From positions 12,377-76,376 of the forward strand of contig CAYQYU010000003.1 of NCBI GenBank assembly GCA_964421955.1: a stretch of DNA of 64,000 bases, written 5' to 3'. A program made the position numbers and the translations under genes. The notes beneath the pieces are model-generated. The model was not told the origin of the DNA. It saw only the letters and a program-made list of their open reading frames with translations, and searched no databases. Shown here one piece after another: positions 18,076 to 48,696 of this stretch; positions within the stretch are counted from its first letter, which is position 1; each line of letters opens with the position of its first letter. Source of the stretch: an uncultured archaeon. Its GTDB lineage: Archaea; Nanohalarchaeota; Nanosalinia; Nanosalinales; Nanosalinaceae.

Positions 18076-18900
18076 CTATCCCTCGTTCATGTAGACCGTC
18101 CTGATAGGGTACGGAATATCGATTCCCTCTTCATCGAAGCGGTCCTTGATCATCTGTGTGACCTCGCTCGACGCCTGGACGATGCCCGCACGTGAAGAGC
18201 TTGTCCAGCCTCTCAGCTTCAGGTTCACCGAGGAACCTCCCAGCTCGTCAACCAGGACCTGGGGCTCCGGCTCGTCCTCGACAGTCTCCGCTTCTTCAAG
18301 AACTTCGTGGGCAATATTCTTCGCCTGCTCTATATCATCTTCGTAGCTTAAGCCGACGATCACGTCGAAACGCCGGGCATCATAAGCAGTATAGTTTATC
18401 ACGATATTGTTGTAGAGTACCGAGTTCGGAACTATTACCTCCCTGCCGTCAAAGGTCTTTATCTTCGACGCCCGTAGCTGGATGTCCTTGAGCGTGCCCT
18501 CCTCTCCGTTCACCTCTATCTGGTCACCGATCTTGAAAGGCCGGTTGACCAGGATGAGTATGCCCGAGATAAAGTTGGCGATCATGTCCTTAAGCGCGAA
18601 CGAGATACCCAGGCCGATAAGACCTACTGCGGCACCGATCCCCGACAGCGGGACTCCAAATACTCCAAGTATTGCCACAAATGTTAGCGGAAAAATCGCG
18701 TAGGCCGTAACCTTTTTCGCAGAGGCCGCGGCGTGTTCATCTCCGCCGCGCCTCCTTACCGCTCTCTCGACCAGGATGTTTGAGAGCCTGTTGAGCCCCC
18801 ATCCCATCCCGGCGACAACCAGAGCCATCATGACAGTTCTCGAGGTAATGTTGTACGAGTTAAGAAATGCAACTGCCTCTGCGACAAGCTCCGGGGACAT
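18076..18900 (-). CDS. mscS: Small-conductance mechanosensitive channel
   Basis: GISFALKDMIANFISG, PFKIGDQI, VIVPNS, GIDIPYP. Confidence 0.93.
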   Translation of the reverse strand: MSPELVAEAVAFLNSYNITSRTVMMALVVAGMGWGLNRLSNILVERAVRRRGGDEHAAASAKKVTAYAIFPLTFVAILGVFGVPLSGIGAAVGLIGLGISFALKDMIANFISGILILVNRPFKIGDQIEVNGEEGTLKDIQLRASKIKTFDGREVIVPNSVLYNNIVINYTAYDARRFDVIVGLSYEDDIEQAKNIAHEVLEEAETVEDEPEPQVLVDELGGSSVNLKLRGWTSSSRAGIVQASSEVTQMIKDRFDEEGIDIPYPIRTVYMNEG

Positions 18901-37510: not shown

Positions 37511-38947
37511 CTAAGAAGAATCTTTGAACAGGTCGCTATTAAATATTGCCAGAACGGGCAGCATCTCCAGCCTTCCCGCCAGCATTCCGATAACCCACGC
37601 GACCTTTATCAGAGGCGAGATAGACACCATCTCCTCGCCCTGAATGTAGACAGGACCCATGTTGCCGATAGAGGAGACGCTCCCGGAGAGCGCGGCCATC
37701 ACATTCATGTCTGACAGCATCAGCGTCCAGAGGGTCAGGACAAAGGTGAAGGCGACCCAGGTGAAGAAAAGTACTGCGATTGTCTGGACAGTCGACCGCT
37801 CCAGTATCTCCCCATCGATTTTGACCTCGTTGATCGCGGTCTCCGGCAGAGAGTAAGCACGTATCCGGACTTTCAGAAGCTCTATAAGCGTCTTCAGTCG
37901 GAATATCTTGAGACCTCCTGACGTAGAACCCAGTGAACCCCCGACAAACATTATTCCTATGAATGCGGCCTGTAGCGCGACCGAGAGAGACATAAGCGAC
38001 ATGGTGGCGTAACCGGCCGAGGAGATTACCGCGGCAGACTGGAAGGTGGAGTCCACCAGAACGCTCTTCAAACTGTGACCGCTCATGAAAAGTTCTATCC
38101 CGGTCAGGATCGCCATCAGACCAAAGATCTGGGCATACATCTTGAACTCGGAGTTACCTATCAGCGAACTGACATCGGTCCGGAGAACACGGTAAAGCAG
38201 CACGAAGTTGACTCCTGCAAGAAACATGAAGAACGTCGTAGCAACCGTTATAGCGGTCGAATCAAAACCTCCTATGCTCGCAGCCATTGTCGAAAAACCT
38301 CCCGTCGATATCGCCGAAAAGGCGTGTAGTATTGCGTTGAAAGGAGTCATGCCCAGAGCCACATAGGTGCCAATTATTACCGCAGTCAGGAAGCCATAGA
38401 CCTTCCAGAGTGCGAAAATCGACTTTGTGAGCGACGGTCTTATCGACCCGGAATCCGTCTTGTGGGCTTCTGCCGAGAAAAGTCTTCTCGAGACGCCGCC
38501 GGATTCACGGATAACCGCGATAAAGAATGTCAGTATGCCAAGACCTCCTATCCACTGCATGAAGGACCGCCAGAAAAGCAGTGAGCGCGGGAGATTTTCG
38601 GGCGCCAGGAACATCGAGATACCGGTAGTGGTCAGGCCAGCGGCCGACTCGAAGATCGCGTCCACGAGAACCATCTCCGTGAGTAATGGTATCGAACCAA
38701 AGATCAAAGCCAGTATCCACCCGAGAACCGTCGCGAACATGGCCTCCTTGACCGTGGGAGATCCTTTATCAACACCCATCTTGATTGCGTGGCCAAGCAC
38801 AAGACAAGATATAGATGCCACTATGAACCCGGACATGTAGAATATCGACTCCCTGTAGTAGACTGCGACGAGCAGGGGTAGGGCGATGGTGAACGCGAAT
38901 ACCTGGAGGAAGCTGCCTACAAACCGGAGAATAACCGGGCTACGCAT
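37511..38947 (-). CDS. trkH: TrkH potassium uptake membrane protein
   Basis: FESAAGLTTTG, QWIGGLG, STGGFS, GSTSGGLK, GRLE; true start MRSP at 38947. Confidence 0.95.
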   Translation of the reverse strand: MRSPVILRFVGSFLQVFAFTIALPLLVAVYYRESIFYMSGFIVASISCLVLGHAIKMGVDKGSPTVKEAMFATVLGWILALIFGSIPLLTEMVLVDAIFESAAGLTTTGISMFLAPENLPRSLLFWRSFMQWIGGLGILTFFIAVIRESGGVSRRLFSAEAHKTDSGSIRPSLTKSIFALWKVYGFLTAVIIGTYVALGMTPFNAILHAFSAISTGGFSTMAASIGGFDSTAITVATTFFMFLAGVNFVLLYRVLRTDVSSLIGNSEFKMYAQIFGLMAILTGIELFMSGHSLKSVLVDSTFQSAAVISSAGYATMSLMSLSVALQAAFIGIMFVGGSLGSTSGGLKIFRLKTLIELLKVRIRAYSLPETAINEVKIDGEILERSTVQTIAVLFFTWVAFTFVLTLWTLMLSDMNVMAALSGSVSSIGNMGPVYIQGEEMVSISPLIKVAWVIGMLAGRLEMLPVLAIFNSDLFKDSS

Positions 38948-39043
38948 GTATTCGAAGTTCCGGCTGCGGGAATAAAAAGCTCTCCAATTAAAAAAGTTTC
39001 TCGCCAAGACTAGGATGCTCGGGCAACTGAGCGGTGATTCATA

Positions 39044-39418
39044 ATGCAAGTTACTATCGGAACACAGGATGGCGAAACCTTCCAGACAGAACTGGAAGAC
39101 TCTTCTCAACTCACAGGAAAGAAAATAGGGGAAACCTTTGACGGCGGAATCATAGGCCTCAGCGGATACGAGCTGGAGATTACCGGTGGCAGCGACAGGC
39201 AGGGATTTCCCATGAGGAAGAGTATAGAAGGTACTGCCCGGAGAAAAGTGCTGCTCGAGGAAGGCTCTGGCACCCGGGAAAAGGAGCAGGGAATGAGGCG
39301 CAGGAAATCCGTGCGCGGAAACACTGTTTCGGACGAGATACAGCAGCTCAACACCACTGTAGCGGAAAAAGGCAGCAAATCCGTGGAAGACCTTCTTGGT
39401 GAAGAAGAGGAAGAATAA
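39044..39418 (+). CDS. rps6e: 30S ribosomal protein S6e
   Basis: LEITGGSDRQGFPM, RRRKSVRGN. Confidence 0.96.
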   Translation: MQVTIGTQDGETFQTELEDSSQLTGKKIGETFDGGIIGLSGYELEITGGSDRQGFPMRKSIEGTARRKVLLEEGSGTREKEQGMRRRKSVRGNTVSDEIQQLNTTVAEKGSKSVEDLLGEEEEE

Positions 39419-39651
39419 TGCCGCATTCCCGCAGAAACAGCGGATCCAGCAGGAACTACTACGGAACGACCAGTATGAAATTCTACATGTGGGCAAAGAG
39501 ACAGTCGAGGAAAAAGGACAAGATAGTTGATCAGATAGGCCAGTGCTACGGAACCGCAAGTGACAGAGCCCATTCACTGGCGGGGGACATCGGCAGTAAA
39601 CTCGGGGACAAAACGGATATTGGGGAATTGCTCTCAGGGCAGGAAAAATAA
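39418..39651 (+). CDS. Small hypothetical protein coupled between rps6e and aIF2g
   Basis: TAATG overlap upstream; stop 1 nt before the aIF2g ATG. Confidence 0.55.
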   Translation: MPHSRRNSGSSRNYYGTTSMKFYMWAKRQSRKKDKIVDQIGQCYGTASDRAHSLAGDIGSKLGDKTDIGELLSGQEK

Positions 39652-39652
39652 G

Positions 39653-40840
39653 ATGACCGAAGGAATACCAGAGGCAAACATCGGGCTTGTAGGCCATGTC
39701 GACCACGGGAAGACCACGCTCACACAGGCACTTTCGGGTAAGTGGACTGACGAGCACTCGGAAGAGTTGAGAAAGGGGATCACGATAAGGATAGGATACG
39801 CCGATATAACATACTATGACGATGACGGGGACCTCAATGTTGATGGAGACGGCGACGAGGTTAGGACCGTCTCGCTTGTAGACGCACCGGGCCATGAGAC
39901 CCTGATGGCAAACGTCCTCTCGGGCGCGGCAATAATGGACGGCGCCATACTTTTGATCGCGGCGGACGAGGACTGTCCGCAACCCCAGACACGGGAACAC
40001 CTAGCTGCGCTGGACATCGCTGGCGTTGAAAATATTGTGATTGCCCAGAACAAGATTGACCTTGTCGACGAGGATCAGGTGCGTGAAAACCACGAGCAGA
40101 TACAGGAGTTTGTATCCGGAACAGTCGCGGAAGAAGCACCCGTAATACCGATATCTGCACAGCACGGCGTCAACATCGATGCACTGCTCGAAGCCGTAGA
40201 CGATGAAATACCCACGCCGGAGAGAGATTCTGAAGAGGAGCCAAGGATGCTTGTCGCCCGGTCATTCGACATCAACAAGCCCGGGACCTCCCCTGAAGAT
40301 ATCAGAGGCGGAGTAGTAGGGGGTAGCCTTATCCAGGGAGAGATAGAGGAAGGCGATGAAATCGAGCTCAGACCCGGTCCACGTATCGACAAGGAGTGGG
40401 AGCCTGTAGTCACGACAGTCGAGGGCATCATGCAGGGTTCAAAAGCCGCGGATAAAGGCACACCGGGAGGACTGCTTGCAATCGAAACCTCTCTGGATCC
40501 GTCTCTTGCAAAGTCGGACGGCCTCTCTGGCAACGTCCTCGGCAGGAAGGACGAACTTCCAGAGGTGACCCAGACAATAGAGATCGAGGTAGACCTCATG
40601 GACCGACTGGTCGGCGCGGAAGACGAACAGGAGATCGAGAACATAAAGGAAAACGAGGCCCTGATGCTAAATGTCGGGACCGGAAAGTCCGCAGGAATCG
40701 TCACACAGGCAGGGAAGAATGTCCGCCTGGACCTGAAAGTGCCAGTGTGTGCAGAAGAAGATGATCGAGTCGCAATATCGCGCCAGATAGGCTCTCGATG
40801 GCGTTTAATCGGTCATGGGAAGATAAGCTCGCTTGAATAA
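39653..40840 (+). CDS. eif2g: Translation initiation factor aIF2 gamma
   Basis: GHVDHGKT, GITIRIGYA, DAPGHE, QNKID, RWRLIG. Confidence 0.97.
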   Translation: MTEGIPEANIGLVGHVDHGKTTLTQALSGKWTDEHSEELRKGITIRIGYADITYYDDDGDLNVDGDGDEVRTVSLVDAPGHETLMANVLSGAAIMDGAILLIAADEDCPQPQTREHLAALDIAGVENIVIAQNKIDLVDEDQVRENHEQIQEFVSGTVAEEAPVIPISAQHGVNIDALLEAVDDEIPTPERDSEEEPRMLVARSFDINKPGTSPEDIRGGVVGGSLIQGEIEEGDEIELRPGPRIDKEWEPVVTTVEGIMQGSKAADKGTPGGLLAIETSLDPSLAKSDGLSGNVLGRKDELPEVTQTIEIEVDLMDRLVGAEDEQEIENIKENEALMLNVGTGKSAGIVTQAGKNVRLDLKVPVCAEEDDRVAISRQIGSRWRLIGHGKISSLE

Positions 40841-40908
40841 GCCCCCTCATTTTTAAAGCCGAGTACCGTGATTACAACTTACTGTAACACCATCCGGTGG
40901 ACCCTCAC

Positions 40909-42462
40909 ATGAGCTTCTTCAATCAACTCCTGACCCTTACCCAGGGCGGCGATGCCCTTGCAAGAGTCATACTTACACTCCTGATACTTCTATCAGGCCA
41001 CCTGGGTGTCAAACTGCTCGGGATTCTGGTAAGAAGGTTCTGGGTGGAGAAAGGGGACCTAAACAAGAAGCAGGTCGAGGAGCGGAACGATACTATACGA
41101 CACCTGGGCTACGTACTTGACGCGGTAGTAATCGTCGCGGCACTGCTCTACCTCAACACAAACCTTACTTCAGCGTTCTCCACAGGGCTCGCAGAGTTTG
41201 TGCCCGACATGCTTTCTGCGATCCTTATCGGTCTGCTTGGCTTCATAGTGGTCAACGTAACGATAAAGGTGGGTGCTGACTTCCTGAGAACCATCGGGAT
41301 CAGGAATTACTTCAGGGAGGTGGGTCTATCGGGGAGCGCTATCAACTTTGCATCCGTGCTTCTGAGAGGATTCCTGTACCTGCTAATCGCCCAGATCGCT
41401 CTCACCGAACTTGGGATAGGCGAGACATTCATCGACAAACTCGTGACTGCCTCTTCCTGGGCCGCGGCATTCCTTATAGCCGCTCTGCTGTTCTACGGCT
41501 TCAAGGATCTTTTCCAGAACTTCGCCGCAGGTATATACCTGAAGAACTCGCAGCAGGTGAGGCCCGGCGAACAGGTCAACCTTGAACAGGGAAAAGGCGA
41601 GATCCGTGAGGTATCACTTTTCTCGACGACTATAGATACTGAAACAGGCTATACTCTTCTCACTCCAAATGCGAGAGTTATGGACTCGGAGATAAAGTTC
41701 AAGAGGACCAAGAGCGATATTGACACTCTGGAGGACATAAAGAGCTACTTCGTCGCTCAGCACCCTTCCTACTGCGGGCCGGCCTCCATGGAAATGGCGC
41801 TCGAAATATTCGGATACAGGCACAGCCAGGAAGAGATAGGTGAAAAAGCAGAAACCACCGAGGAAGAAGGAACCGACCGTGACAAGCTGATGGAAGCAGT
41901 GGAAGAAATGACGGAGGAAGAGGTCAGCACCGCGTACGTGGAGTACGACAAGATCACTGATATAGCGGACGAGTTCAAGACCTGGTTCAACGACGGAGCA
42001 ATGATAGTTCCAAACTTCTACAAGCCAGAGCTCTTCCCAGACGCAACAACAGGACACTATGTACTGTCTGTGGGTGTCGAGGGGGACGAGATACTGGTCA
42101 TAGATCCCAGCGGCCACACCGGAAGCGGCGGAGTCTACTACGTCAACAAGGACAGGCTCTACGATGCGATGGCAGAGTTCGATCATTCACGCGGATACAT
42201 AATAGTCGCGCCGGAGGGAACTACGGCGCACTGGAGGATCAAGAACGACCTGATCTATAGCGACAGGACCTATTATGATGAGCTCTCGAAGACCCTGGAA
42301 GCACGGCTTAGAAAGATAATGAGACAGGGGGGACTCCTGAAAAATGCAATGCCTTCATCTATAAAAGACTACATGGAGGACTGGAGGACTGGAGAACGGG
42401 TTACCCGGCTCTGGAAGGCCACGGAGGGGAAAGATGAAACTTCTGAAGATAACAAGGAATGA
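40909..42462 (+). CDS. MscS-family channel fused to a C-terminal C39-like cysteine peptidase
   Basis: TMs plus FKDLFQNFAAG...GEIREVSLFST; then QHPSYCGPAS, GHYV, VIDP (Q-C-H-D). Confidence 0.85.
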   Translation: MSFFNQLLTLTQGGDALARVILTLLILLSGHLGVKLLGILVRRFWVEKGDLNKKQVEERNDTIRHLGYVLDAVVIVAALLYLNTNLTSAFSTGLAEFVPDMLSAILIGLLGFIVVNVTIKVGADFLRTIGIRNYFREVGLSGSAINFASVLLRGFLYLLIAQIALTELGIGETFIDKLVTASSWAAAFLIAALLFYGFKDLFQNFAAGIYLKNSQQVRPGEQVNLEQGKGEIREVSLFSTTIDTETGYTLLTPNARVMDSEIKFKRTKSDIDTLEDIKSYFVAQHPSYCGPASMEMALEIFGYRHSQEEIGEKAETTEEEGTDRDKLMEAVEEMTEEEVSTAYVEYDKITDIADEFKTWFNDGAMIVPNFYKPELFPDATTGHYVLSVGVEGDEILVIDPSGHTGSGGVYYVNKDRLYDAMAEFDHSRGYIIVAPEGTTAHWRIKNDLIYSDRTYYDELSKTLEARLRKIMRQGGLLKNAMPSSIKDYMEDWRTGERVTRLWKATEGKDETSEDNKE

Positions 42463-43243
42463 CTTTGAAGAGTTCGACCCACTGTTTGAAGAGGTCGAAA
42501 CGGTCAACGTTGAACAGGTCGCGCCGTCGGTCATAGACGGTGAGACAGATGTAAAGATCAATGGCGGCTCGATATCGGATTACGACGCAGTCTTCACGGA
42601 TATACCCCAGAAAAACGCCGTCTTCGGACGCGTCCTGCTCGAAATGATAGAGGAGGAGGGTATCCGCACCAACCATCCCTCGACCGCATTCTTCATCATG
42701 TCGAAGAAGAACTATTTGCACCATGTACTCCACCAGAAAGACATCGACGCTTCCGCAACAGTTGTGGTTGCATCGGATAAAGCCGGCCGGAACATCGAAG
42801 ACCATCTCGAGACGCCGCTGATCGCGAGAAAATTCGACCAGCTTGTGGAAGTTGAAAGCCGGCTGATCGAGGACGAGGACACAATAGAGGAATTTGTCGG
42901 CGGCACCGAGTATCCCGACGAGTTCATAGTGTTCCAGGAGCTCGAGGATGGCGACAAGTACAGGTGCCTCTACGCCGGAGGCGAAATCATATCCCTGATG
43001 GACAGCAGCGACAGCTGGCAGCTCCAGGATGAAAAACTGAAGTACTCGTCCCTTTCACAGGAGCAGAAAAAAACCGTGGAGAAAGCCGCAAAGAACATTG
43101 GAACACCCGTAGCCGAGGTAGTCCTGCGCGGCGGGAAAGTCTTCGACGTGAACCCTAACCCCGATCTGGGCCAGTACACTGAAGTATCCGGCAAAAACGC
43201 CTACGAGGCCGTTGCACAGGTCCTGAAAGGTGATATAGGTTGA
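42434..43243 (+). CDS. RimK-like ATP-grasp protein (degenerate)
   Basis: ATP-grasp layout, FQE, DVNPNP; lacks the Gly-rich loop. Confidence 0.75.
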   Translation: MKLLKITRNDFEEFDPLFEEVETVNVEQVAPSVIDGETDVKINGGSISDYDAVFTDIPQKNAVFGRVLLEMIEEEGIRTNHPSTAFFIMSKKNYLHHVLHQKDIDASATVVVASDKAGRNIEDHLETPLIARKFDQLVEVESRLIEDEDTIEEFVGGTEYPDEFIVFQELEDGDKYRCLYAGGEIISLMDSSDSWQLQDEKLKYSSLSQEQKKTVEKAAKNIGTPVAEVVLRGGKVFDVNPNPDLGQYTEVSGKNAYEAVAQVLKGDIG

Positions 43244-43296
43244 AGCTTTCCGCAGGAAAGACTTCTGGCAAAAATCAGCCGGAGGCGGATTTTTAA
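43240..43296 (+). repeat. Hairpin/mini-ORF connector element (TTG start; MKLSAGKTSGKNQPEADF)
   Basis: CTTTCC/GGAAAG hairpin, then AAAAATC..GGAGGC..GATTTTT; overlaps the stop and start of both flanking genes. Confidence 0.7.
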
Positions 43297-44183
43297 TGAA
43301 AATGGCGATAGTGTACGGCGACATATCGACCACCCACCAGCTCATAATTGAAAGAGCGGAAGAGATTTTCGAGTCCGTGCTCGCAGCACCTGTTGACGGC
43401 CTGAAGTTTGCACATATTGACGGCGAGAACAAGGTAATCTACAAGGATACCGATCTGACCGAGTTCGACGCGGTCTACATAAGGACCGGGGACAAGGACA
43501 AGCTGTTCTCCGAGCACCTTACAGAGGTCCTGAATGAAGCCGGGGCAGTCACGCAGGCGGAGAACGACACCTATGCTTACGAGTCCAACAAGTTCTACTC
43601 GATGAAGGTACTGGCGGAAAACGGGGTCAAGGTTCCCGACAGCGTCTACACTCTTTCTCCTGACGCGGCAGTTGAGGCCGCGGAAAAGCTCGGCTACCCG
43701 ATCATCATGAAAACTATCGGCGGGGGAGGCGGCCAGGGAGTAATGCGCGCGACCTCGGAAAACGAGCTGAAACCAGTTATGGATACCATGAAGGCCTTCG
43801 AACAGGACATCTGCCTCCAGGAGTACAAAGAGCACGACGGCACTGACAACCGCATAATAGTCATCGGCGATCAACTGGTCGGCTACCAGCGCTCCAGCGC
43901 AGGGGACGAATGGAGGTCAAACATATCAGGCGGCGGAGACAGGAGAAAGGCAGAGATTACGGAAGAGATCGAAGAGTCCGCAACAAGATCCGCGAAAGCA
44001 CTCGGATTCGATATCTGCGGCTGTGACATAATAGACATCGAGGACGGAGTTTACGTACTGGAGGTTAACGGAGCCTTCGGCCTTAACGAGGGAATAAATG
44101 ATGTAGTCGGCGAGGACATAATTCTGCGTGTCGTCGAGGGAATGCACGAACTGGCAATTCAGCACCAGGAAGAGAAAAAATGA
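43296..44183 (+). CDS. RimK/LysX-family alpha-L-glutamate ligase
   Basis: NKFYS, YPIIMK..GGGGQGV, LQEY, DNRIIV, WRSNISGGG, GCD, LEVN. Confidence 0.92.
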   Translation: MKMAIVYGDISTTHQLIIERAEEIFESVLAAPVDGLKFAHIDGENKVIYKDTDLTEFDAVYIRTGDKDKLFSEHLTEVLNEAGAVTQAENDTYAYESNKFYSMKVLAENGVKVPDSVYTLSPDAAVEAAEKLGYPIIMKTIGGGGGQGVMRATSENELKPVMDTMKAFEQDICLQEYKEHDGTDNRIIVIGDQLVGYQRSSAGDEWRSNISGGGDRRKAEITEEIEESATRSAKALGFDICGCDIIDIEDGVYVLEVNGAFGLNEGINDVVGEDIILRVVEGMHELAIQHQEEKK

Positions 44184-45232
44184 GAACCGGAGTCGAACTG
44201 GAGTACTGGGTTACAGACGGGAACGGAAAGCTACGCTCCGCCGAAAAGATCGCCTCGCGACTGGATTTCGCCGAAAGAGAATTTGTCGAACCGGTACTTG
44301 AAATAAAAACGGAGCCACGAGAAACAGTTTCTGGGTTGAGGAACGAGATCAAGAGGAAGCTCAAGAATGCCATAGAGGAGGCGGAAAGCCTCGATCTGAA
44401 CATTGTCGGTCTGGGGACACCACTTCACTCGGGAGAGATCAAAACAGATGAATCGGCGAGATCAAGACTACAGGAGAAAATTGTGGGTGAACGGCTCAAC
44501 TACGCCAAACACGTTGCGGGCACACACTTCCACTTTGAACAGACCGATCCCGTGAAACAGATCAATCTCCTGACCGCGCTCGACCCCTCGCTCTCGCTTG
44601 TCAGCTCCTCACCCTACTACCGGGGCAAGAGAGTGGCAGACAATGCGAGAAACCAGATATACCGCTACAGGTGCTACGAGAAACTCTCAAAACACGGCCA
44701 GCTCTGGAACTATACCTCGAGCAGGGAAGAATGGGAGAACCGTATCGAGACGAGATTCAACGAGTTCAAGGATTTTGCGCAGGAAAAAGGGATAGATGGA
44801 TCAAAGATAGAAGAGCACTTCCGCCCGGAGGACAGCATATGGATTCCCGTCAGGCTCAGGGAAAAGTTCGGAACAGTTGAATGGAGATCTCCTGATTCCG
44901 CTCTTCCCGGCCGGATAATCGAGTTGCTCGAAAAAATCAGGCATCTAGTTGAAAAAACTGGAGACAGCAGACTTGAGACAGGGAAACCCGGGATAGAACC
45001 GGGAAGAATAGTGGTGCCGGAGTTCACGGAACTTGACCGGCTCTCAAGAAACGCGATATATGATGGGCAGGAAAACGGTGAAGTCCGGAGATATCTCGAG
45101 GAACTAGGGTTTGAAAAACAGGATTCAGTCTCCAGGGAAATTGATGCCGGGGCCAGCATAGATCGTGAGACCGCTAAAAAAATAAGACTGAAATACAGCA
45201 AAAAGCTCAAGCAGGACGTCAAAAAGCTCTAG
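44180..45232 (+). CDS. Glutamate-cysteine ligase family 2 (GCS2) carboxylate-amine ligase
   Basis: TGVELEY, LEIKT, GTHFH, SSPYYRG, W.PVR...GTVEWR.PD. Confidence 0.88.
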   Translation: MRTGVELEYWVTDGNGKLRSAEKIASRLDFAEREFVEPVLEIKTEPRETVSGLRNEIKRKLKNAIEEAESLDLNIVGLGTPLHSGEIKTDESARSRLQEKIVGERLNYAKHVAGTHFHFEQTDPVKQINLLTALDPSLSLVSSSPYYRGKRVADNARNQIYRYRCYEKLSKHGQLWNYTSSREEWENRIETRFNEFKDFAQEKGIDGSKIEEHFRPEDSIWIPVRLREKFGTVEWRSPDSALPGRIIELLEKIRHLVEKTGDSRLETGKPGIEPGRIVVPEFTELDRLSRNAIYDGQENGEVRRYLEELGFEKQDSVSREIDAGASIDRETAKKIRLKYSKKLKQDVKKL

Positions 45233-45236
45233 AAAA

Positions 45237-45614
45237 ATGAAGAAGATAATCCTTGACACCAACTTCCTGGTGGCGCCCTTCCAGCTAAATCTCTCAGTTT
45301 TCGATGAACTCGAAAGACTCTACCCGCACGCGGAGACATACACCCTGGAAGACGTGATCCAGGAGGCGAAGAGCATAGAGTCCGGCAAGTACAAGGCTCT
45401 TGTCCACAAACTGGTTGAAACACAGGACATGGAGGTTCTCGAAACAGAAGGAAGCGGAAGCGTCGACGACCTGCTCGTCGATCTCGCGGACGAGTACGTG
45501 ATCGCCACCAACGACAGGGAGCTGAAGCAGAGGCTGCTCGAAAAAGATGCGGAAGTCGTGATTATCCGGAGCAAGAACCATCTCGAGGCGCTTAACCGGC
45601 AGGAACTTCGATAG
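45237..45614 (+). CDS. PIN-domain protein (Fcf1/Utp24-like)
   Basis: ILDTNFL, VDD, IATNDRELK; usual position before rpoE. Confidence 0.9.
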   Translation: MKKIILDTNFLVAPFQLNLSVFDELERLYPHAETYTLEDVIQEAKSIESGKYKALVHKLVETQDMEVLETEGSGSVDDLLVDLADEYVIATNDRELKQRLLEKDAEVVIIRSKNHLEALNRQELR

Positions 45615-47643: not shown

Positions 47644-48696
47644 ATGTCAGAAGATTTCATCCTGCCTCCAAAATTAGAGAAAGGAGACAAAATAGCAGTT
47701 ATTGGAACCTCAAGCGGAGTACAAGAGTTCCCGAAAGTTCTTGAGATAGGAGTGAAGAGACTGGAAAACCGCTTCGGACTAAATCCCGTTGTTTATGATA
47801 CAGCAAGGAAAAATACGGAGTATTTGAACAGTCACCCCGAGGAGAGAGCCGAAGAATTCATGCATGCCTTTGAAGACCCGGAAACAAAGGCAGTTATAGC
47901 CTTGACTGGAGGGGATGAACAGCTCAGAACACTGAAACACCTTGAGCCGGAAAGACTGAAGGATAATCCGACGAGGTTCTACGGCATCAGCGACAACACC
48001 AACATCCATATATACCTCTGGAGTCTCGGAATACAGAGCTTCTACGGCGGTCAAATACTTGACGATTTACTGGCTGAAGGAGAACTCGGAGAGTATAACT
48101 ACAAATATCTAGAGAAAGCCTTCTTTGAGGATAGTCTTGGAGAACTCAAGCCCTCTGAAAAGTTCACTGACGAATTCTTTGATCTGTTCCAAGAAGAAAT
48201 TGAGGATGACAGAAAACGTTTCGACTCCCCAAACTGGGAGTTCTGGAACTTCGATGAAGAGGTTGAAGGCAGAGTTTTCGGAGGATGCTTCGAGATAATT
48301 AACTGGCAGATGGTAGTTCAGAGATACTTACCTGAACCCAAAAAACTTGAAGACACAGTATTGGCGCTGGAAACTTCTGAGGAAGCGCCTTCAGGAACAG
48401 AGGTCAAGAGATGGCTCACATGTCTTGGAGAAAACGGGATTCTCGATAAATTCGCCGCAATAATTGTAGGAAGACCCCCGAGATCACCTCTTCACGGCGA
48501 TAATAGGGGTGAAGAGGAGAAAAGAGAGTATCACAGAAACCAGAAGAAGATTATCAAGCAAGAAGTCGAAAGATACTGCCCAGACACTCCTATAGTCTTC
48601 GACATGGATTTCGGCCATACACACCCTAAAATACCTCTAAAATCAGGGGGAAAAATCAGGATAGAGCCTGAAAACAGAGAGATAACCTCTCTCTGA
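47644..48696 (+). CDS. S66 peptidase (LD-carboxypeptidase/MccF family)
   Basis: PPKLEKGDKIA, GISDNT, LETSEE, DFGHT.P (S-E-H triad). Confidence 0.92.
   Translation: MSEDFILPPKLEKGDKIAVIGTSSGVQEFPKVLEIGVKRLENRFGLNPVVYDTARKNTEYLNSHPEERAEEFMHAFEDPETKAVIALTGGDEQLRTLKHLEPERLKDNPTRFYGISDNTNIHIYLWSLGIQSFYGGQILDDLLAEGELGEYNYKYLEKAFFEDSLGELKPSEKFTDEFFDLFQEEIEDDRKRFDSPNWEFWNFDEEVEGRVFGGCFEIINWQMVVQRYLPEPKKLEDTVLALETSEEAPSGTEVKRWLTCLGENGILDKFAAIIVGRPPRSPLHGDNRGEEEKREYHRNQKKIIKQEVERYCPDTPIVFDMDFGHTHPKIPLKSGGKIRIEPENREITSL

Follow-up and report, generated by a model that had tools for sequence, protein, structure and literature searches.

The locus described here raises the question of what an MscS-type channel protein has to do with a set of carboxylate-amine ligases inside an archaeal cluster of translation genes. 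It is a block of four genes (g1 to g4) on the + strand of a 64,000-nucleotide (nt) stretch from an uncultured member of the Nanosalinaceae (Nanohalarchaeota; contig CAYQYU010000003.1), referred to below as the window, and it is located between the genes for aIF2-gamma and a PIN-domain protein. The genome holding the window (G000) comprises 0.92 Mb in 27 contigs and is 98.8% complete. An original prediction, made from the sequence, described a system that builds a glutamyl peptide, polymer or tag at a tension-gated channel. That description remains the best frame, with its chemistry and osmotic role as what we infer, and it is sharpened here to a glutamyl ligase/peptidase cycle that an MscS scaffold tethers to the membrane, which is given about an even chance of being right. 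Domain identities, the status of catalytic residues, synteny, co-occurrence and co-loss were computed directly, and the complex that would hold the parts together was predicted; what the system makes, how this is cleaved, whether the channel conducts and what part it plays in osmotic control are inferred.

Conservation of the g1-g2-g3 trio

The block consists of the following features; residue numbers of g1 count from the GTG start.

40897-42462 (GTG start, 521 amino acids (aa)) or 40909-42462 (ATG start, 517 aa), + strand: g1, MscS-type channel core joined to a papain-like domain
42434-43243, + strand: g2, 269 aa, catalytically degenerate RimK paralogue (pseudo-ligase, predicted adaptor)
43296-44183, + strand: g3, 295 aa, intact RimK-family ATP-grasp ligase
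44180-45232, + strand: g4, 350 aa, GCS2-family carboxylate-amine ligase, an accessory gene in a variable slot
40851-40858, + strand: TATA-like box TTTTAAAG upstream of g1

The stored protein P0001 has a length of 517 aa, equal to g1 from the ATG at 40909. The genes g1 and g2 overlap by 29 nt, g2 and g3 are separated by 52 nt, g3 and g4 overlap by 4 nt, and the PIN gene starts 4 nt beyond g4.

The fusion of an MscS-type membrane part with a papain-like domain that constitutes g1 was found in 64 of the 70 genomes of the phylum, with 37-66% identity, which excludes the assembly artefact considered along with the original prediction. Sixty g1 loci were fetched and the proteins of the window were mapped onto them. 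Both g2 and g3 follow g1 in 59 of the 60 loci, the lone exception being a contig that ends inside g1; aIF2-gamma lies ahead of g1 in 55, and the remaining five are cut by contig ends. A GCS2 gene, by comparison, is present in 12 of the 60 loci with the trio and in 24 of the 70 genomes, so that the conserved unit is the trio g1-g2-g3 and not the four-gene set first proposed.

The order g1-g2-g3 is also kept in five of six divergent loci that do not have the aIF2-gamma/PIN context (L137, L138 and L140-142, but not L127), and likewise in other genomic contexts in the divergent lineages of L106, L112 and L114. In one divergent locus the trio is preceded by GCS2 and an M29 peptidase and followed by a third RimK paralogue. 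A scan with the C-terminal domain of g1 over one genome per species (185,579 species) yielded 66 loci. All of these belong to nano-archaeal lineages of hypersaline habitats, a few of them under evidently wrong labels. Among 1.84 billion representative proteins, 58 match this domain at an expectation value (E) of at most 1e-10; nearly all are about 500 aa long and aligned at 255-500, and thus represent the same fusion, while the weaker matches are free-standing C39 peptidases of 150-200 aa. A few short representatives of the domain (232-282 aa) may be fragments or split forms.

Loss of the trio follows the same pattern. Six genomes do not have the fusion; g3 is likewise missing throughout five of them, and the sixth has g2 and g3, with no g1 found on that contig. 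Empty sites between aIF2-gamma and rpoE', in which g1-g3 are absent, were located in three families.

G054:C24:1036-3306, aIF2-gamma to rpoE' 0.5 kb apart
G001:C13:5691-8303, aIF2-gamma to rpoE' 0.9 kb apart
G006:C4:2277-5535, aIF2-gamma to rpoE' 1.5 kb apart

The absence of g3 from the genome together with the closeness of aIF2-gamma and rpoE' indicates that the trio is absent as a block. The genome G054 shares its genus with two trio-bearing genomes, so the loss looks recent; its aIF2-gamma match contains one in-frame TGA. These sites bear out the original statement that aIF2-gamma, PIN and rpoE' are otherwise contiguous and that the block interrupts them.

That g1 is an ordinary osmotic safety valve and g2-g4 are unrelated metabolic ligases standing beside it by chance would accord with the origin of all loci from one phylum with a generally conserved gene order. 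The trio moves together into other contexts, however, and is lost together in three families; g1 and g2 overlap, and the complex prediction described below passes its controls. A chance neighbourhood is therefore scarcely credible, and synteny, co-occurrence, co-loss and complex prediction support the functional link between the genes that had been proposed.

Of 53 orthologous loci, 49 have a TATA-like box no more than 100 nt ahead of g1, so the block has its own conserved promoter-like element; TTTTAAAG itself occurs five times across the window versus 1.2 expected. The coordinates of the open reading frames and of this box bear out the four tightly coupled genes with an upstream box that had been noted at first. 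A scan for sigma-70 promoters and terminators gave none above chance. A look-up of sequencing runs listed three DNA runs of one study, one of them perhaps from the source sample, and no RNA run. The gap between g2 and g3 contains a stem-loop followed by a T-run (43262-43295, + strand), a type of site that is not above its chance number; it could modulate the expression ratio of g1-g2 to g3-g4.

Channel, papain-like domain and ligase pair

The product of g1 is divided into the following regions, all on the + strand.

40954-41547, + strand: membrane region, residues 20-217, five long helices in the full-length AlphaFold 2 model, the last corresponding to TM3a/TM3b
41548-41706, + strand: MscS beta-domain, PF00924
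41725-42222, + strand: papain-like domain (C39 / phytochelatin-synthase / Pei-like) with Q288, C293, H387 and D403
42223-42390, + strand: family-specific C-terminal extension, residues 443-498, helix LSKTLExRLRKI, predicted docking site for g2/g3
42391-42459, + strand: disordered acidic tail, residues 501-521, with a predicted local distance difference test (pLDDT) below 50 from residue 501

Residues 204-266 of g1 match PF00924 (MS_channel_2nd) with E 6.5e-9 and 36.2 bits (cut-off 20.2), and phmmer aligns residues 106-270 to MscS/YnaI chains with E 2e-5. The helices of the full-length model (pLDDT 80.5) span residues 20-50, 57-86, 88-133, 146-172 and 176-217; the count of five helices ahead of the beta-domain equals that of YnaI, and in solved MscS the beta-domain is cytoplasmic. 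The motif KDLFQNxAAGIYL in TM3b is near-invariant among orthologues. Foldseek retrieved 4hwa at E 1e-7 for the full model, which matches MscS structures and the Nostoc phytochelatin synthase separately, and no single solved chain spans both halves. The vestibule parts of MscS (alpha-beta domain and C-terminal barrel) are absent from g1, where the papain-like domain and a helical extension come after residue 270. The channel is presumably heptameric. An ordinary MscS-type paralogue is encoded at about 18400-18636 on the - strand (G000:C3:30776-31012), in a 281-aa frame with 25% identity to g1 in the beta-domain region, so the genome also owns a plain channel.

The papain-like domain of g1 matches Peptidase_C39_2 (PF13529; E 1.2e-8, 36.1 bits, cut-off 24) and Peptidase_C39 (PF03412; E 1.2e-5, 25.5 bits, cut-off 22), whereas phytochelatin synthase (PF05023; E 1.4e-4, covering 177 of 210 model positions) is matched with 21.6 bits, below the cut-off of 24.9. 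The C-terminal part modelled alone reached a pLDDT of 79.8 and a predicted template modelling score of 0.79. The top Foldseek matches of this model were acyl-enzyme structures of Nostoc Alr0975 (E 1e-7, about 200 columns, 20% identity), and the Z values of VIA-align were 17.3 for PeiR, 15.3 for 22oc, 14.8 for NsPCS (Alr0975) and 14.7 for the C39 domain of ComA (3k8u), with the ComA and PCAT1 peptidase domains at 14-14.7. Differences this small among the Z values do not allow a substrate class to be assigned. Structural similarity is limited to model residues 8-173, and when the C-terminal domain was run as a sequence profile against the PDB, only chance matches came back (E >= 0.66). The papain-like fold first suspected is thus borne out by structure comparison, and the motifs QHPSYCGPAS, GHYV and IDP, reported as intact, are present and provide Q288, C293, H387 and D403.

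Among 57 g1 sequences, Cys, His and Asp are intact in 29 and Cys or His is replaced in 28, while Asp is retained in 56. The g1 protein persists in the lineages without the nucleophile. Because 28 of the 57 orthologues lack the Cys/His pair, a core function shared by all members cannot be peptidase activity. On a tree of the g1 membrane part, g2 and g3 (49 rows), two changes suffice to explain the triad label, so that any pattern relating the triad to neighbouring genes represents two to three events and is suggestive only.

The similarity to C39 domains also suggests maturation and export of a leader peptide, in which the g1 domain would cut a double-glycine leader and the MscS pore would replace an ABC transporter; the C39 Pfam matches and the structural matches to ComA and PCAT1 agree with it. 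The domain is, however, C-terminal to a channel and not N-terminal to an ABC exporter, its catalytic residues are gone in about half of the orthologues though g1 stays conserved, and its conserved partners are ATP-grasp ligases and not peptide precursors. The genes are packed too tightly for the operon to contain a precursor gene, no dedicated leader-peptide search having been made elsewhere in the genome. The export of a matured peptide through the channel, which the original prediction had offered as one option, is unsupported by this spacing and is rated very improbable.

The partners of g1 are an active ligase and its inactive relative. The g3 protein matches Pfam RimK with E 1.4e-34 and exceeds the cut-off of TIGR00768 (151.1 versus 143.4 bits), and its profile finds E. 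coli RimK (5zct/4iwx) at E 7e-43 and 7qyr at E 9e-41, RimK being its best solved relative. Across 37 sequences no change occurs at K139, G143-G148, D184, R186, R207-N209, D244, E256 or N258, and the ATP-grasp residues are all retained, as had been read from the sequence. The g2 protein aligns with the g3 family over its full length (hhalign probability 99.7%, 270 columns) and has lost the Gly-rich loop, the R-S-N motif and one Mg-binding Asp (the equivalent of D244); its matches to RimK-family models are weak (TIGR00768, 24.2 bits versus a cut-off of 143.4). These losses make g2 a pseudo-ligase, in line with the degenerate ATP-grasp protein recognized earlier.

How the three proteins may fit together is indicated by a three-chain prediction of g2 and g3 with residues 270-521 of g1 as partner, for which own alignments were used. 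The complex scored 0.84 (runs 0.84, 0.87 and 0.79), and the best of three controls, in one of which g3 was replaced, scored 0.00. When the tool was calibrated, 58 of 80 solved complexes and 2 of 110 mismatched pairs attained the same mark. At least 91% of the contacts are shared among the runs, and the partner pLDDT is 78 or higher. The predicted contacts of g1 are residues 441, 446, 462, 464-470, 472-473, 476-477 and 480, with the invariant helix 464-480 as core; the groove for this helix is formed by residues 76, 82-85, 88, 98, 102 and 220-224 of g2 and by residues 89-91, 108-109, 231, 234-235 and 237 of g3. Conservation of the g1 interface residues was 0.74 versus 0.64 in random sets, 4% of which were as high. 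The invariant positions of g1 are found in TM3b, in the beta-domain and, most prominently, in the extension (W446, R447, K465, E468, R476, P486 and W496), which has no structural counterpart among the PDB matches. The prediction supports binding of the g1 helix to g2/g3 without showing it.

In the proposed cycle, g1, g2 and g3 would form one machine. The MscS-type channel would bear the papain-like domain and the C-terminal helix on the cytoplasmic side, and the helix would dock a heterodimer of the inactive paralogue g2, as adaptor, and the active ligase g3. The ligase would build alpha-glutamyl chains, which could be free oligo- or poly-glutamate or be attached as a tail, and the papain-like domain would trim them. 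A search of G000 for RimB-type retropepsins (PF05618) gave no match, with positive results in the control genomes of H. volcanii and M. acetivorans; the papain-like domain is therefore the natural candidate for the trimming partner. In lineages with a dead papain domain, trimming may have been taken over by MATCAP-like or AstE-like metallopeptidases encoded nearby, and in this window the GCS2 protein g4 may add a further amide bond. The MscS tether would couple the glutamate or polyglutamate pool to membrane tension or to solute release.

Several observations weigh against this cycle. Conduction and tension sensing by g1 are putative. The fold search does not separate C39, phytochelatin-synthase and Pei-type enzymes (Z 14.5-17.3), and cleavage by g1 cannot be universal, given the orthologues without the Cys/His pair. 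The g3 protein reaches a family-level model only, and the RimK family includes ligases for substrates other than peptide tails (MptN, CofF, LysX); it falls under every equivalog cut-off, with 110.6 of 331 bits for RimK PRK10446, 119.4 of 350 for MptN, 116.8 of 275.6 for LysX and 80.1 of 300 for CofF. The complex score of 0.84 is the model's own confidence, and the own alignments and three chains differ from the calibration of the tool; the predicted interfaces of g2 (0.59 versus 0.54) and g3 (0.61 versus 0.67) are not conserved above average. At L127, g1 has no adjoining g2/g3, and a g3 relative is located elsewhere in that genome.

The variable slot after g3

The interval between g3 and PIN is a slot of 1-4 kb whose content changes among loci and which is occupied in the window by g4. 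The identification of g4 as a GCS2 ligase holds, the Pfam cut-off being exceeded (E 6.7e-11, 42.5 bits, cut-off 21), while both GshA equivalogs are missed (NF010045, 33.1 versus 395 bits; NF010043, 31.5 versus 409 bits) and phmmer of g4 against the PDB gave no match. The nearest outside relatives are haloarchaeal proteins with 35-43% identity and the source name glutamate-cysteine ligase, which also miss the GshA cut-offs (28-52 bits on NF010043). Two haloarchaeal plasmids with such relatives (L147, L148) have no ATP-grasp or papain neighbours. The occurrence of g4 relatives in Halobacteria, the host clade, some of them plasmid-borne, may reflect gene exchange between host and symbiont, as far as sequence similarity can tell.

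In other loci the slot contains YheCD/TTL-type ATP-grasp ligases (25 loci, 34 copies; TTL Pfam E 3e-6), MATCAP/DUF1704-like proteins (15 loci, HExxH in 15/15), AstE/AspA-like deacylases (10 loci, E 2e-22), GCS2 (12 loci) or further RimK paralogues (5 loci). The profile of the MATCAP-like proteins matches MATCAP 7z5g at E 7e-7 and TIGR02421 down to E 4e-29. A second type of neighbour, cluster 2, occurs in 16 loci and is a P-loop protein some 340 aa long, with the Walker A motif RMDAGKTT, encoded on the opposite strand after g3.

L026, L032, L045-L050, L056-L062, L071, L072, L075, L077: MATCAP/DUF1704-like slot proteins, beside TTL/YheCD-like ligases
L037-L044, L052, L055, L060, L063-L068, also L106, L107, L112, L114: cluster-2 P-loop protein

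Pfam gives weak MobB matches for the cluster-2 protein, a single Atlas look-up provides the lead that it may be DUF1611-like, and it is located beside intact-triad g1 only; one query did not find it in G000. A search of G000 for MATCAP (PF08014) was empty, as were the control searches. In raw counts, MATCAP-like proteins accompany a triad-less g1 in 15 of 15 cases, and GCS2 (13/13) and the cluster-2 protein (14/14) an intact one. The slot genes all act on amide bonds of acidic substrates, as ligases or peptidases, and this relatedness of chemistry counts in favour of the proposed cycle.

The presence of GCS2 admits a thiol-peptide pathway, in which g4 would make gamma-glutamylcysteine, g3 would extend it and the g1 domain would transpeptidate or hydrolyse the product, in metal or redox defence or in export. 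The extent of the PF05023 alignment, the position of Alr0975 at the top of the Foldseek matches, the restriction of slot GCS2 to intact-triad loci and the source name of the haloarchaeal relatives agree with such a pathway, as does the use of gamma-glutamylcysteine as a thiol by haloarchaea (PMC7278568). This pathway is nonetheless improbable: many intact-triad lineages have no GCS2, g4 and its haloarchaeal relatives lie far under the GshA cut-offs (about 33-52 versus 395-409 bits), the PF05023 score is sub-cut-off, VIA-align places PeiR above NsPCS and ties NsPCS with C39, g3 resembles RimK far more than glutathione synthetase (E 1e-34 versus 3e-13), and the association of the triad with GCS2 comes down to two to three independent events.

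The other slot enzymes suggest a possible code written on protein C-termini, in which g3 and the TTL/YheCD-like ligases would extend acidic ends by glutamate or other residues and the papain-like, MATCAP-like or AstE-like peptidases would reverse this, with the disordered tail of g1 itself or a neighbour such as S6e as target and with regulation like that by RimK/RimB on bS6 or by tyrosination and glutamylation of tubulin. The slot enzymes do come from superfamilies that edit tubulin tails, the acidic tail of g1 directly follows the docking helix, the block is embedded among translation genes, and the known RimK substrate is a protein C-terminus (PMC11957051). The S6e protein, encoded two genes upstream, has an EE end in 31 of 51 orthologous loci within the series L022-L080, with an E-run of variable length. 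Acidic tails are common in the proteome, however, RpoE' having an EE end in 21 of 42 loci; the tail of g1 is poorly conserved and missing in some lineages, no tail residue is at the interface of the complex model, and the adjacency of S6e and aIF2-gamma extends to distant relatives of the order and probably reflects ancestral gene order. Such a tail code is considered unlikely, though with a real chance of being correct.

The S6e gene of the window is located at 39044-39418 (+ strand); its product ends in ...LLGEEEEE and recalls the RimK substrate bS6. The protein eS6 is not homologous to bS6.

An elaboration of the tethered cycle, speculative and doubtful as a whole, would have an MscS heptamer dock up to seven ligase pairs beside seven papain-type domains, with membrane tension setting the balance between making and cutting of polyglutamate. 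The product would be a free polyanion that buffers K+/glutamate, or tails on the channel, and the slot would supply TTL-like, MATCAP-like and M14-like enzymes, as a prokaryotic counterpart of the tubulin code at a channel.

The aIF2-gamma gene (39560-40840) forms the 5' flank, preceded by S6e, and PIN_9 (45237-45614; Pfam) forms the 3' flank, followed in order by RpoE' (Rpo7), Spt4, S24e, L29 and SUI1; the GC content shows no break at the block borders. An S66 LD-carboxypeptidase/MccF-like peptidase is encoded at 47644-48696 on the + strand (PF02016, E 5e-27; PF17676, E 7e-20), 2.4 kb 3' of g4 and past the PIN-rpoE'-Spt4-S24e-L29-SUI1 genes. This archaeon is not known to have murein, and the peptidase could be a further enzyme for glutamyl or aspartyl amides. 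On the - strand, the listed 829-aa open reading frame at 37511-40000 is apparently over-extended, its N-terminal part overlapping S6e and aIF2-gamma; its C-terminal two thirds resemble, by eye, the membrane subunit of a Trk-type K+ transporter.

Comparison with known systems

The genomes of Nanohaloarchaeota have about 1 Mb and encode almost no biosynthesis; a near-universal trio at a fixed site among translation genes in such tiny genomes implies that it does something of central importance for living in saturating salt or on a host. Should the tethered cycle hold, g1 would be the first MscS-type channel known to act as a scaffold for enzymes and g2 would be a new case of a pseudoenzyme serving as docking subunit, with the lineages that combine a dead papain domain with replacement metallopeptidases as natural controls. 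Literature searches found no account of the fusion or of the trio, their scope not extending to the supplementary tables of halophile-genome papers, which could list the family.

Among MscS-family channels (E. coli MscS, YnaI and the minimal T. cruzi MscS), TM3a/TM3b and the beta-domain are common to g1, which differs in having the papain-like domain and the docking helix in place of the alpha-beta domain and C-terminal barrel. The C39 domains of the bacteriocin ABC exporters ComA and PCAT1 have the same fold, the same Gln/Cys/His/Asp order and a similar attachment to a membrane transport protein; the g1 domain is instead C-terminal to a channel and has ligases as partners, half of its orthologues are catalytically dead, and a double-glycine precursor gene is absent from the operon, a genome-wide search for leader peptides not having been made. 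Phytochelatin synthase (Nostoc Alr0975, PF05023), the best Foldseek match, acts on gamma-glutamyl peptides, which would fit the ligase neighbours; it is soluble and not fused to a channel, the Pfam score of g1 is below the cut-off, and its Z value is tied with those of C39 and Pei. The tubulin tail enzymes (TTL/TTLL, MATCAP and M14-type carboxypeptidases) belong to the same superfamilies that are paired in the slots of relatives, where MATCAP-like proteins beside TTL-like ligases repeat the combination known from tubulin detyrosination and tyrosination; none is encoded in this window, and the analogy applies at the superfamily level only, with no known tubulin-like substrate.

RimK makes poly-alpha-glutamate and glutamylates bS6, and RimB reportedly binds and regulates RimK and trims the tails (PMC11957051). 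There, as here, ligase and peptidase are encoded together, and g1 is predicted to bind the ligase pair as RimB binds RimK. The peptidase of the archaeal system is, however, papain-like and not a retropepsin and is fused to a channel, and the ligase is paired with an inactive paralogue.

The closest published analogue is RloABC of P. aeruginosa, which combines a seven-transmembrane protein bearing a papain-fold domain (an inactive transglutaminase) with a cytoplasmic RimK-like ATP-grasp protein and a polyglutamate-cleaving peptidase; it is needed for hypo-osmotic tolerance, and its substrate is not known (PMC11957051, bioRxiv 2025). A membrane protein with a papain-fold domain and a RimK-like ATP-grasp protein are common to RloABC and the trio, as would be a peptidase for polyglutamate. 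In g1, by contrast with that description, the membrane part is an MscS core, the papain-like domain comes after the beta-domain and the triad is intact in this window. No sequence relationship is detectable; a PF14402 search of G000 was empty, and so were those of the control genomes. The placement of the archaeal version on a classical hypo-osmotic channel fold and the hypo-osmotic role of RloABC make, by analogy, a striking convergence, which is not functional evidence. If the tethered cycle is correct, it would tie polyglutamate chemistry of the RimK type to osmotic control in a way that can be tested, a connection which the Rlo genetics hinted at and left unexplained. The new elements of the trio are the joining of an MscS core to a papain-like domain, a pseudo-ligase as putative adaptor and a helix predicted to dock the ligase pair, and the known kind to which it belongs is that of membrane-partnered modules of ATP-grasp amidoligase and peptidase.

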